This document shows, piece by piece, positions 48,001 through 51,000 of a stretch of DNA of 64,000 nt; position 1 is the first letter of the stretch, and every line of letters begins with the position of its first letter. The position numbers are program-made. Source of the DNA: a virus (lineage: Duplodnaviria > Heunggongvirae > Uroviricota > Caudoviricetes); IMG/VR virus record IMGVR_UViG_2718218360_000002; one strand, 5' to 3'.

Positions 48001-51000
48001 AACCGGCAGTATGCGGAACTACAGAGTGAATATAAGCATCTGCGGCGGTATTTTGGCGTGACGGCGCAGGTGCCGTACACGGATGTGTGGACGCATAAAC
48101 CGGTGCAGTACTATCCCGGGAAACATCCGTGCGAAAAACCGGCAGAAATGCTGCAGCAGATAATCAGTGCGAGCAGTCGTCCGGGTGACCTGGTTGCAGA
48201 TTTCTTCATGGGGTCGGGTTCGACAGTCAAAGCCGCGATGGCGCTGGGGCGTCGTGCAACTGGCGTTGAGCTGGAGACTGAACGTTTTGAGCAGACGGTC
48301 AGGGAAGTACAGGATTTAGTCAGTCAGAACGGATGATATTGCAGAATTAACCGGGTATCAGGTACGCCCCGAAAATTTTAAATGTCTCACAATTCAGACG
48401 GTTGACAGTTGTCTGGTTTGCGGGGAGTTTGTTAAAAGAAACTGGCATGGTGAATCCCCCTGAGCGGAGGGGCATATCAGCGCAGGTGTTTCTACTCTAT
48501 CCTTTCTGTGCGGGTTCAGGTGCTGATACTGAATTCACCGGGAGGCACCCGGCACCATGCAAGAAAAAGAATGTGCATGCAAACATGCCCCTCTCCGGAG
48601 GGGCATTTTTTTATGGGTAAAAAATGCCCGAATGGGTTCGGGCAATAGCATGAGATACTGATATTGTTGTGTTGTTATCGTGTGGATTTTAACCAGGGTT
48701 TATCAGGCTGCGCAACTGCGTGGCCTTTTTTCATTTCTTGGGCTGTAGTCCCCGTGTGTCATTCAGGCTTCCGGACTACAGCCCACTCCATATCTGATTT
48801 AATACACTATCCCGGCCGGGAGGAATAATGACATTTAAACATTATGATGTTGTCAGGGCGGCGTCGCCGTCAGACCTTGCGGAAAAGCTGACACACAAAC
48901 TGAAAGAGGGCTGGCAGCCGTTTGGTAGTCCGGTGGCCATAACCCCTTATACCCTGATGCAGGCGATTACAGCAGAAGGTGATGTGGTGGTCAGTGGTGC
49001 AACTGAGCCGGATTGGTACTACGTCATCGTACTGGCCGGGCAGTCCAATGCCATGGCTTACGGTGAAGGGCTTCCGCTGCCGGATTCATACGATGCTCCG
49101 GATCCGCGCATTAAACAGCTGGCGCGCCGCAGTACAGTGACGCCGGGTGGGGCTGCCTGCAGATATAACGATATTATTCCGGCCGACCATTGCCTGCATG
49201 ATGTGCAGGATATGAGTACGCTGAATCATCCGAAGGCAGACCTGAGCAAAGGGCAGTACGGCTGTGTCGGCCAGGGGTTACATATTGCCAAAAAACTGCT
49301 CCCGTATATCCCGAATAACGCGGGGATCCTGCTGGTACCATGCTGTCGTGGTGGTTCGGCATTCACCCAGGGCGCGGAGGGGACATTCAGTGCGGACACG
49401 GGGGCCAGCCAGGATTCGGCGCGCTGGGGTGTGGGTAAACCGTTATATCAGGACCTGATTGCGCGCACCAAAGCTGCATTACAGAAGAACCCGAAAAATG
49501 TGTTGCTGGCCGTCTGCTGGATGCAGGGTGAGTTTGACATGAGCGCCGCCACCCACGCACAGCAACCTGCGCTGTTTACAGCCATGCTGAAGCAGTTTCG
49601 TGCTGACCTCTCCGTGTTTAACGCGCAGTGCCATGGTGGCAGTGCTGCAGATGTGCCGTGGATTTGTGGTGACACGACGTATTACTGGAAAAATACATAC
49701 GCTACCCAGTACGACACCGTGTACGGCGGGTATAAAAACAGGGAGAGTGAGGGCGTTTATTTTGTGCCCTTCATGACAGACGGTAACGGCGTCAATACCG
49801 CCACTAACGCGCCGGCAGAAGATCCGGATATTCCGGCATCAGGATATTACGGTGCGGCATCGAGAACGAATGGAAACCAGGTATCATCAAACCGCCCGAC
49901 ACATTTCAGTTCATGGGCGCGCAGGAGCATTATTCCGGATCGTCTGGCAACCGCTATTCTGAACGCAGCCGGGCGCACCTCAGCCTTCATCAGTGGTAAG
50001 GCACCGGAAATCAAACCCTCGCCCGGCGGCAACACGCCATCGGGTCCGTCTGCAGATACGTCCGTTCGCACAATCTCCCTGCTGCCGGCAGCCGGAGAGG
50101 CTGCTGCGCAGGGCTGGAGCATTAAGGATGGCGGAATTCAGTTGTCAGATGGTGTATTTAAGATCACCAGGCAGAGCAATAAAACCTGGTCCCTGACGCA
50201 TCCGGTGGATGACGCAATTACCCTGCTGACACAGGGCGGCAGACTGACCTGTAAGTTCCGCCTGTCAGGCGCACTGACCAACAATCAGTTCGGGCTGGGG
50301 ATTTATCTGTATACGGATGCTCCCGTTCCTGATGGTGTGGCGATGACGGGTACCGGTAATCCGTTCCTGATGTCGTACTTCACTCAGACCACTGACGGCA
50401 GAGTGAATCTGATGCATCACAGGAAAGCCGGAAACACGAAGCTGGGGGAGTTCGGCGATTACGGTAACGACTGGCAGACGCTGGAGCTGGTGTTCACCGC
50501 CGGCAGTGCCACGGTTACTCCGAAACTGAATGGAGTGGCTGGCCCGGCATTCCAGGTCATAAAAGACAGTCTGACACTGGGACTGAATGCGCTGACGCTG
50601 ACGGATGTTACAAAAAATGCAGCGTATGGCGTTGAGATAGAAAGTCTGGTGCTGGAGATAAATGCACCGGCAGCATAATAAAAAAAGAGCCAGCGACTGA
50701 CCTGAAAAAGAAGACGCTGGCTAAAAGGCCTTATATGTTTGTAGATACTTATTTTTCACAGACAGCAATGATGCCTGTCAATATATTATCAATATGCGGA
50801 TTGTTTCAGTTACAGATGCTTTATTAAGGAAAAAAACAGCCAGCACTGACTTTCGGTGGGGAGGTGCTGGCTCAAAAGGATAGTTGGATTTCACATGATA
50901 CTTATGCCTGGCGGTATATTTTCTGACAGACAGTGACGGATGTTGTCAAGATATTGTGTCATTTATAACCTGAACCAGGGGGGCCGGAATGTTATCTGGC

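Follow-up and report, generated by a model that had tools for sequence, protein, structure and literature searches.

A known sRNA module upstream of nanS-p in the probable late operon of a non-Stx lambdoid prophage of Escherichia coli O157:H7

The window considered here is a 64,000-nucleotide stretch of the Caudoviricetes record IMGVR_UViG_2718218360_000002, the DNA of which matches many E. coli O157:H7 chromosomes at 100% identity. Its late region contains, in order, a Q-like antiterminator gene, a DNA methyltransferase gene, a spacer of 491 bp, the sialate O-acetylesterase gene nanS-p and an S/R/Rz lysis cassette. This order had been noticed in a first-pass annotation made from the sequence alone, which likened it to the late region of Stx phages; all of its elements were found, and the layout is indeed that of an Stx-phage late region. 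Absent from that annotation were a small wHTH ORF, the sRNA gene agvB with its minus-strand terminator, a third terminator on the plus strand, and the PR'/tR' pair.

The antiterminator gene (45882-46703, plus strand) encodes a 273-aa protein of the lambda-Q family (PF03589, E 7.6e-50). It is 32% identical end to end to lambda Q, which itself also scores against PF03589, and differs from it in an insert of about 66 aa that carries extra CxxC pairs and forms an additional zinc-finger-like segment. Directly behind the gene lies a candidate PR' (46709-46748, plus strand), comprising a -35 element TTGATT (46709-46714), a -10 element TAAATT (46731-46736) and a -10-like pause element AACGAT (46743-46748), with a putative start at about 46743. 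The candidate (GGTAAATTTGcCctAACGATGGG) aligns with lambda PR' (GGTAAATTTGaCtcAACGATGGG), the -10 element TAAATT and the pause element at +1 (AACGATGGG) being nearly identical in the two. As in lambda, a terminator follows: terminator scanning and folding identified a candidate tR' on the plus strand at 46786-46807 (CCCGCCGCCTGGCGGG followed by T6). Q-specific DNA ends at 46785; in contigs with other Q families, homology to the window stops exactly to the left of 46784-46797, and the tR' stem marks the first base of the DNA common to phages with three different Q families. The assignment of 46709-46748 as PR' is inferred from the resemblance to lambda together with this recombination boundary. 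A consensus promoter scan reported neither this element nor the agvB and STnc100 promoters described below.

Two genes separate tR' from the spacer. The wHTH ORF (46930-47127, plus strand; 65 aa, weakly TrmB-like) is followed by a terminator at 47114-47137 and is kept at 95-100% identity 3' of all three Q types, while the N6/N4 DNA methyltransferase gene (47278-48336, plus strand; 352 aa) matches PF01555 (E 5.6e-44). Between 46600 and 51200 there are 15 terminator-like sites, compared with 4.2 +/- 2.2 in shuffled sequences. If the lambda model applies, the lambda-family Q would load onto RNA polymerase at the lambda-like PR' directly behind its own gene. Transcription would halt at tR' (46786) when Q is lacking, and Q-modified polymerase would read through the intrinsic terminators tR', 47114, that of the STnc100-type RNA and that at 48705, such that the wHTH ORF, the methylase, nanS-p and S/R/Rz would be transcribed. 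The lambda leader (6S RNA) is about 200 nt long, whereas that of the window would be shorter, at about 60 nt; the alignment puts the lambda T-run far downstream. The distance from PR' to the holin gene also differs: it is about 0.6 kb in lambda, whereas in the window at least five terminators are spread over about 4.3 kb.

The spacer between the methylase and nanS-p (48337-48827) matches 334 phage records, mostly Stx1a-, Stx2a- and Stx2c-converting phages, with about 71% identity over 90% of its length, and is colinear with the intergenic region between stx2B and nanS-p (L0105) of phage 933W. The alignment with the Q-stx-nanS-p region of Stx phages that the first-pass annotation had proposed as a check bears out its homology to Stx-phage DNA, though the matching interval is stx2B-nanS-p rather than Q-stx. 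Its left part is occupied by a gene for an STnc100-family sRNA (48389-48613, plus strand; RF02076), a relative of EcOnc27 and PasD. The Rfam match (48416-48616) reaches 150 bits, the gathering score being 47, and covers model positions 1-206 including the terminator; like other members of the STnc100/PasD family, the gene is matched over its full length and shares both structure and terminator. Hairpin 1 (48585-48606, followed by T7 up to 48613) is the terminator of this sRNA, with a folding energy of -21.9 kcal/mol (z -5.0; none of 200 shuffles as stable). The 5' end of the RNA probably lies near 48389, about 27 nt 5' of the start of the Rfam model and preceded by a conserved TTAAAT (48378-48383). 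As regards its promoter, TTAAAT/TGTAAT about 5 nt before CACAATTCAG is the sole motif kept in all contexts; several hexamer readings yielded no -35 element conserved across contexts. Copies of STnc100 are transcribed in uninduced EDL933, one known copy lies 75 nt 3' of stx2, and the homolog in Sp5, EcOnc27, shows on northern blots as bands of approximately 235 and 247 nt, the larger of which is destabilized without hfq. No function is on record in the literature for any member of the family.

Converging on this gene from the minus strand is agvB (48619-48680; RF02702), which encodes an anti-GcvB sponge sRNA. The match scores 96.5 bits (gathering score 56), is identical to the consensus at 62 of 62 positions, and lies 2 nt from the STnc100 match. 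AgvB's variable 5' region (CGAUAACAACACAACAAUAUC) bears the GcvB R1 target motif CACAACA, and its terminator occupies 48644-48625 plus T6 on the minus strand. A likely agvB promoter can be read from the sequence at 48681-48715 on the same strand (-10 TAAAAT at 48691-48686, -35 TTGCGC at 48715-48710, 18-nt spacer) in a block conserved in 933W and relatives; because its -35 element matches at only three of six positions, it went unreported by the consensus scan. Antisense to the 5' end of AgvB is an Hfq-bound segment (48655-48731, plus strand) that contains the EcOnc06 site (48655-48717), 100% identical to the EcOnc06 CRAC site of Sakai prophage Sp17, and is ended by the third terminator (48705-48726 plus T6, plus strand; dG -14.9, z -4.1). 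A captured gcvB gene on the plus strand (48579-48732) was considered and rejected: the Rfam GcvB model scores only 26.8 bits there against a gathering score of 42, posterior probabilities are low, many of the pairs are non-canonical, and the match reflects the GU-rich AgvB antisense plus a terminator.

Convergent sRNAs at the moron site 3' of PR' have been described in Sakai prophages Sp3, 4, 5, 9, 10, 11, 15 and 17, and for AgvB of identical sequence, binding to Hfq, the lifting of GcvB-mediated dppA repression and a fitness phenotype in mucus of the bovine rectum have been demonstrated (Tree et al. 2014, PMC4104026). By analogy, AgvB from the window would pair with the R1 seed of host GcvB, so that transporters for peptides and amino acids would be freed from repression in the lysogen. 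The 62-nt sequence is present exactly in Sp10 and Sp17 (agvB1 and agvB2; EcOnc01a/b, PMC4104026), in the same convergent arrangement 3' of PR', and the homologous DNA extends over window positions 48427-50693 (95.3% identity to Sp10, 97.5% to Sp17), spanning the STnc100-type gene, EcOnc06, hairpin 2 and nanS-p. The upstream regions differ: in Sp10, Q is of 184 aa and is accompanied by ileZ, argO and a TerB-like gene; in Sp17, Q is of 207 aa and a gene for a membrane protein is present; the window has the 273-aa lambda-type Q, the wHTH ORF and the methylase but is free of cargo. Differences extend to the lysis genes. Given that the common part is limited to 48427-50693 and that the Q and cargo genes differ, the window represents neither Sp10 nor Sp17.

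A second inverted repeat, hairpin 2, lies in the 5' leader of nanS-p (48739-48785, plus strand; arms 48739-48751 and 48773-48785). The first-pass annotation had correctly seen a strong hairpin here, though it placed it at 48731-48775, so that its position shifts by about 9 nt to the right. The 13-bp arms are perfect and enclose a 21-nt loop (dG -28 kcal/mol, z -5.8), and no T run follows the stem on either strand. The suggestion that both hairpins may be terminators holds for hairpin 1, the terminator of the STnc100-family sRNA, but not for hairpin 2, which is a conserved leader stem of nanS-p. Among 28 variants, 97.8% of cells pair, compared with 15-48% in slid controls, and three pairs are changed on both sides, alongside several plus-strand G-U pairs, with this covariation resting on only three to four independent sequence lineages. 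Downstream lies the ribosome-binding region (48811-48827, plus strand; CCCGGCCGGGAGGAATA), the Shine-Dalgarno sequence GGGAGGA of which is partly within a short CCC/GGG stem of putative role; in the variants this region is either kept or replaced by CCCGGAAAGGGGAGGA.

The nanS-p gene (48828-50678, plus strand) encodes a 616-aa protein with an N-terminal DUF1737 domain (PF08410, residues 3-50), a SASA domain (PF03629, E 1.1e-12) and a lectin-like DUF6645 domain (PF20350, residues 467-577). Residues 59-379 align with NanS (PDB 3PT5; E 7e-122) with AGQSNAMAYGEG conserved, the motif GQSNAMAYG at residues 71-79 coinciding with the same motif of NanS, and the C-terminal domain aligns with that of NanS-p (6YP6; E 2e-29). 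The protein thus combines the SASA domain and GQSN serine motif of NanS-p with both flanking domains and a late-region site 5' of the lysis genes, and is predicted to be a three-domain 9-O-acetyl sialic acid esterase. It shares its domains and the GQSNAMAYGEG motif with NanS (YjhS) and with the NanS-p proteins of 933W (L0105/z1466) and phi24B (vb_24B_21/gp84), and its late-operon position with the latter two, although it is only 53% identical to L0105. De-O-acetylation of Neu5,9Ac2 has been shown for the EDL933 and O104:H4 NanS-p alleles, NanS-p proteins of non-Stx prophages are documented as active, and decoration of the capsid via DUF1737 has been shown for the phi24B virion. Between nanS-p and the holin gene, a further spacer (50679-51125, plus strand) contains two imperfect repeats of about 120-140 nt, as well as hairpins resembling terminators at 50983-51000 and at 51045-51071; in EPEC, the sRNAs PasA and PasC have been reported at this position. 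The lysis cassette, which is also present in the RefSeq annotation of identical DNA, consists on the plus strand of a P21 holin S family gene (51126-51332, PF04971), a lysozyme gene (51332-51829, PF00959) and Rz (51826-52293, PF03245) with Rz1 at 52046-52231.

The site at which cargo genes reside in relatives is empty in the window. It occupies 48337-48388: homology to the left flank of 933W ends at 48349, and the sRNA module starts at about 48349-48388. The slot for toxin and tRNA genes is therefore this junction, at about 48349/48350, where the 3' flank of the methylase meets the spacer module at its left edge, and nanS-p lies downstream of the slot. The proposal that nanS-p itself sits in the toxin slot is contradicted by 933W and other stx2 contigs, in which nanS-p has the same place, 3' of stx and behind the same spacer. 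In 933W the junction holds about 1.67-1.7 kb (pT, ileZ-argN-argO, stx2AB), and a methylase remnant 5' of ileZ retains the last 110 bp of the gene (90% identity, window 48226-48349). Among 62 IMG/VR contigs, the junction variously contains tRNAs, joined in 12-13 contigs by stx2AB, or a hybrid tRNA, a gene for a lipoprotein or one resembling TerB. The reported lack of stx and tRNA genes was confirmed: ARAGORN found no tRNA gene in the 64-kb window, and tblastn with 933W Stx2A/B found no homolog of either in the window (best E 0.12). In these searches with ARAGORN and the Stx2A/B queries, neither of the two marks of Stx-converting phages, stxA/stxB between Q/PR' and the lysis genes and ileZ-argN-argO, was seen; the tRNA cluster upstream of stx is common in Stx phages, not universal. 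A search of the window for a tRNA remnant, using the hybrid-tRNA segment of relatives (blastn-short), gave only chance matches of 10-12 nt. The PGAP 'tRNA-Met' of these relatives is not called by ARAGORN and by eye is a hybrid of ileZ (5') and argO (3'). Right of the junction, the stx2B-nanS-p region of 933W and Sp5 is colinear with the window in the STnc100-type RNA (EcOnc27), the third terminator, hairpin 2 and the ribosome-binding site, and is likewise followed by nanS-p and lysis genes. It differs in that its anti-sRNA combines the same 3' part with the AsxR seed (EcOnc02, anti-FnrS) instead of that of AgvB, its hairpin 2 contains a T-T mismatch and closes on a longer loop, its upstream junction holds tRNAs and stx2AB, its Q belongs to PF06530, and its identity to the window is about 71%.

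The empty junction raises the question of the history of the prophage. Both flanks of the tRNA-stx2AB segment of 933W abut in the window, relatives can be ordered by decay from three tRNAs through two and a single ileZ/argO hybrid to none, and an stx2 contig (L076) has a full 352-aa methylase of 98% identity, all of which would suit descent from an Stx phage in which a deletion at 48349/48350 removed stx, either alone or together with the tRNAs. Such a descent is nevertheless unlikely. In the IMG/VR sample, stx2 adjoins only modules of the AsxR type (12 of 12), never those of the AgvB type (0 of 6) or EcOnc03 type (0 of 21); window positions 48349-48387 resemble the 3' flank of TerB-type cargo more than that of stx2B; and in the closest relatives, with 96-98% identity in Q and 99% in the methylase, a hybrid tRNA is the only cargo, which suggests loss of tRNAs rather than of toxin genes. 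That the spacer hairpins are scars of excised toxin or tRNA cargo, as the first-pass annotation had raised, is extremely improbable, even though many relatives have tRNA and stx genes that are missing from the window and its closest relatives have about 115-160 bp more at the junction. All of this extra DNA lies left of 48376, outside the module, hairpin 1 falls within the 150-bit Rfam match, and 933W and the stx2 contigs, which retain their tRNA and stx2AB cargo, show the two hairpins in register together with the anti-sRNA and the third terminator.

Other readings concern what the spacer does. The STnc100-type RNA, at about 200 nt, is near the length of lambda 6S RNA, TTGACA occurs at 48402-48407, and the most frequent Salmonella neighbours of STnc100 include a Q-like 'chaperone', in keeping with its being the PR'-tR' leader (as are lambda 6S RNA and StxS of Stx2 phages) transcribed from a late promoter inside the spacer. 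This is very improbable, however, since a near copy of lambda PR' with AACGAT lies directly after Q, 1.7 kb upstream, and the same STnc100 module is found 3' of stx2B in phages with Q proteins of PF06530 and PF06323, in which PR' is annotated beside Q; this identity for the RNA was rejected on the lambda-like PR' behind Q and the end of the Q module at 46785. With three terminators inside 150 bp and the lack of a recorded function for STnc100, the spacer might also be a mere stack of insulating terminators that silences nanS-p and the lysis genes in the lysogen, its RNAs being by-products without a role. This appears distinctly unlikely given the demonstrated target and mucus fitness phenotype of AgvB, the binding of these RNAs to Hfq, with loss of hfq destabilizing AgvB and the 247-nt EcOnc27 form, and the divergence of anti-sRNA 5' regions (AgvB, AsxR and EcOnc03 types) beside constant 3' parts, a pattern expected of seed evolution. 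A more elaborate proposal, in which the spacer is a lysogeny/lysis switch acting on host sRNA control and also a cis-regulatory leader of nanS-p, is doubtful as a whole; neither idea was found stated in the cited literature. Under such a switch, agvB would be expressed and GcvB sponged in the lysogen; upon induction, Q-modified polymerase would cross agvB and collide with its transcription, and the resulting plus-strand RNA (48655-48731), GcvB-R1-like and perfectly complementary to AgvB, would neutralize it. As a conserved leader that annotation has missed, hairpin 2 and the CCC/GGG stem overlapping the Shine-Dalgarno sequence may set the stability or translation of nanS-p mRNA.

The region is thus very probably the part of the late operon nearest to its promoter in an E. 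coli O157:H7 lambdoid prophage without stx, with a known sRNA module as its spacer, an identification for which sequence identity, family membership and synteny provide the evidence. Publications already cover both the components and their arrangement, with nanS-p known from prophages that lack stx and convergent sRNAs dependent on Hfq, AgvB among them, known from the moron site, and the region therefore carries little weight as a discovery; the arrangement was described by Tree et al. in 2014 and reportedly also by Saile et al. in 2016. In RefSeq, neither sRNA is annotated and a spurious pseudo-CDS covers the STnc100-type gene, which represents an annotation gap rather than new biology. The value of the window is modest and practical, in that it places the same agvB allele in a third prophage context of O157:H7 lineages and provides a clean empty-site reference for the entry of tRNA/stx and other cargo into the late-operon scaffold at about 48349/48350.

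Many E. coli O157:H7 chromosomes are 100% identical to window 45800-52300 (e.g. FRIK2455 at 1.85 Mb), and RefSeq labels this DNA as encoding RusA, antitermination protein, hypothetical protein, DNA methyltransferase, SASA-family esterase, class II holin, lysozyme RrrD and lysis protein; the region thus belongs to a lambdoid prophage of an extensively studied pathogen. ORFs and Pfam domains bear out the genes named in the first-pass annotation: Q (45882-46703; PF03589), an N6/N4 methylase (47278-48336; PF01555), the nanS-p-like esterase (48828-50678; DUF1737, SASA and DUF6645 domains, with a GQSNAMAYG motif) and, downstream of it, S/R/Rz lysis genes for a P21-type holin, lysozyme and Rz/Rz1. 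The reported lack of toxin and tRNA genes also stands, with 0 tRNAs called by ARAGORN within 64 kb and no match within the window in tblastn with Stx2A/B of the Stx2 phage 933W. Upstream of rusA, an internal stop divides a DUF968 gene (44449-45498) into two ORFs, 44449-44955 and 44971-45498; RefSeq lists the gene as a pseudogene, indicating that the prophage is at least partly decayed. The window ends (1-6889 and 57116-64000) share 99.8% identity across 6.9 kb, so the window covers two lambdoid prophages next to each other, or one prophage and a remnant, with common structural-gene DNA; such repeats are recombination substrates and a source of assembly errors. Positions 2918-3510 (also 60029-60621) hold 3.7 tandem copies of a 162-bp (54-codon) unit, 97% identical, within an 807-aa ORF (1553-3976); the array is probably a repeated domain of a virion protein.

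The 491-bp spacer between methylase and nanS-p (48337-48827) encodes small RNAs. Rfam places STnc100 (RF02076) at 48416-48616 on the plus strand (150 bits; gathering score 47) and AgvB (RF02702) at 48619-48680 on the minus strand (96.5 bits; gathering 56), the latter agreeing with the consensus at 62/62 positions and matching exactly the copies in Sp10 and Sp17, prophages of O157:H7 Sakai. Both of these copies bind Hfq and base-pair with the R1 seed of GcvB; they relieve repression of DppA and promote growth in bovine rectal mucus (Tree et al. 2014, PMC4104026). Convergent sRNA genes occur at the moron site downstream of the Q-antiterminated PR' in Sp3, 4, 5, 9, 10, 11, 15 and 17, including an EcOnc27/AsxR pair 3' of stx2B in Sp5, and a third Hfq-bound RNA of ~177 nt, EcOnc06, is tabulated as "5' ECs1961" (Tree et al. 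2014, PMC4104026). Window 48655-48717 (plus strand) is 100% identical to the EcOnc06 CRAC site, which lies antisense to the 5' end of AgvB and continues into a third terminator (48705-48726 plus T6); late transcription and agvB may influence each other through antisense effects. In EDL933, STnc100 copies are transcribed without induction, and earlier literature describes one copy 75 nt downstream of stx2. RefSeq annotates neither sRNA and lists part of the STnc100-type gene (48509-48586; minus strand 5710-5787 of the matching RefSeq-annotated DNA, L001) as a partial pseudo-CDS ('hypothetical protein, incomplete').

The spacer matched 334 phage records at about 71% identity, mostly Stx-converting phages. 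The proposed likeness to the Q-stx-nanS-p region holds for the interval between stx2B and the nanS-p of 933W (L0105), where STnc100-type RNA, anti-sRNA, third terminator, the second spacer hairpin and RBS all align, and not for Q-to-stx; the anti-sRNA is AsxR in 933W and AgvB in the window. Between tR' and ileZ, 933W retains 124 bp with 90% identity to window 48226-48349, the methylase gene end, and about 1.67 kb (pT, ileZ, argN, argO and stx2AB) separates homologs of adjacent or near-adjacent window positions. With this methylase remnant upstream and the sRNA module downstream, the cargo sits exactly at the window junction, ~48349/48350. Among 62 IMG/VR contigs that have this module, two or three tRNAs are the commonest content of the junction; others carry tRNAs with stx2AB (12-13 contigs), tRNAs with a TerB-like gene of 143 aa (the Sp10 arrangement), or a lipoprotein gene. 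The closest relatives of the window have a single ileZ/argO hybrid tRNA and a terminator, and the window itself has the smallest junction observed, with 51 bp separating the methylase stop from the module anchor. The hybrid is a 71-nt gene (L004 3183-3253; L005 3096-3166) annotated by PGAP as tRNA-Met and not recognised by ARAGORN; by eye, an ileZ 5' part (anticodon CAU) is fused to an argO 3' part, which would be an intermediate in phage tRNA-cluster decay.

The colinearity with 933W and the junction contents overturn the placement of nanS-p in the toxin slot, since the gene adjoins the slot on its downstream side and lies colinear behind stx2B in 933W. Nor are the two spacer hairpins scars of an excised cargo, as had been suggested: both are in register in 933W, which still holds its tRNAs and stx2AB. 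The anti-sRNA genes fall into three seed types that share a constant 3' part (AgvB-type, 30 copies; EcOnc03-type, 29; AsxR-type, 12; IMG/VR contigs L007-L126). In this IMG/VR sample stx2 was linked only to AsxR-type modules (12/12), never to AgvB-type (0/6) or EcOnc03-type (0/21), which argues weakly against a loss of stx from the AgvB-bearing window lineage; what the lineage lost is more probably a tRNA cluster.

Hairpin 1, for which the first pass had allowed a terminator, is a strong one (48585-48606 plus T7; dG -21.9, z -5) and forms the STnc100-type 3' hairpin. Hairpin 2 exists, but lies at 48739-48751/48773-48785, about 9 nt from its first-pass position; it has 13 perfect pairs, a 21-nt loop (dG -28, z -5.8) and no T run after it. 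Across 28 distinct variants of the interval from third terminator to nanS-p ATG, the stem is preserved, with 97.8% of cells pairing compared with 15-48% for slid partners; three pairs show both-sided changes (e.g. A-U to G-C), and several pairs are G-U on the plus strand, for which the minus strand would have A-C mismatches. The pattern speaks for a stem at the RNA level in the leader of nanS-p, with moderate support because the variants represent only three or four lineages. The stem may act as an mRNA stabiliser, a processing site or, with a CCC/GGG stem overlapping the SD, in translation control.

Window Q is a lambda-family protein (32% identity to lambda Q, full length) with a 66-aa insert. 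The insert (46236-46433; Q residues about 119-184) adds CxxC/CxxCxGxG motifs, forming a second zinc-finger-like segment with a weak DnaJ central-domain match; Salmonella genes annotated 'prophage chaperone' are probably similar Q genes. Directly 3' of the Q stop codon, TTGATT-N16-TAAATT-TGCCCT-AACGATGGG is a near copy of lambda PR', including the -10-like AACGAT element, which in lambda directs a sigma-dependent pause, as established by the Roberts laboratory. A GC-rich terminator follows (46786-46807), and in contigs with PF06530 or PF06323 Q the DNA shared with the window begins precisely at 46784-46797, so Q with about 80 bp acts as a single exchangeable unit, as expected with qut/PR' there. 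The lambda-like sequence, terminator and unit boundary together point to a candidate PR' at 46709-46748 and tR' at 46786; given this promoter directly behind Q and the boundary, the STnc100-type RNA was rejected as a PR' leader. Directly behind tR', a 65-aa wHTH ORF (46930-47127; weak TrmB-like match, E 0.002) with its own terminator is 95-100% identical in phages of three different Q families. Terminator-like sites are enriched across 46600-51200 (15, where shuffles give 4.2 +/- 2.2). Extrapolating from lambda, polymerase modified by Q would pass tR' and the 47114, STnc100 and 48705 terminators, allowing expression of nanS-p and the lysis genes; published work shows that norfloxacin and mitomycin C induce nanS-p, consistent with such read-through.

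Between esterase and holin, 50679-51125 contains two imperfect repeats of ~120-140 nt, each with an A7 run, a GCCAGC...GCTGGC hairpin and GATACTTA...ACAGACAG...TGTCAA.ATATT, followed by terminator-like hairpins (50983-51000 and 51045-51071). PasA/PasC sRNAs are reported at this position in EPEC; Rfam gave no match in 50679-51125.

The biology of the region is already known, the first-pass observation being confirmed and its interpretation partly supported. The esterase matches NanS (3PT5; E 7e-122) and the C-terminal NanS-p domain of known crystal structure (6YP6; E 2e-29), and is 53% identical to L0105. In EDL933 and O104:H4, NanS-p alleles of both Stx and non-Stx prophages are reported to be active esterases that support growth on Neu5,9Ac2. 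The phi24B homolog decorates the capsid via its DUF1737 domain (2026 preprint), and nanS-p may thus serve the phage as a structural accessory and not purely as cargo.
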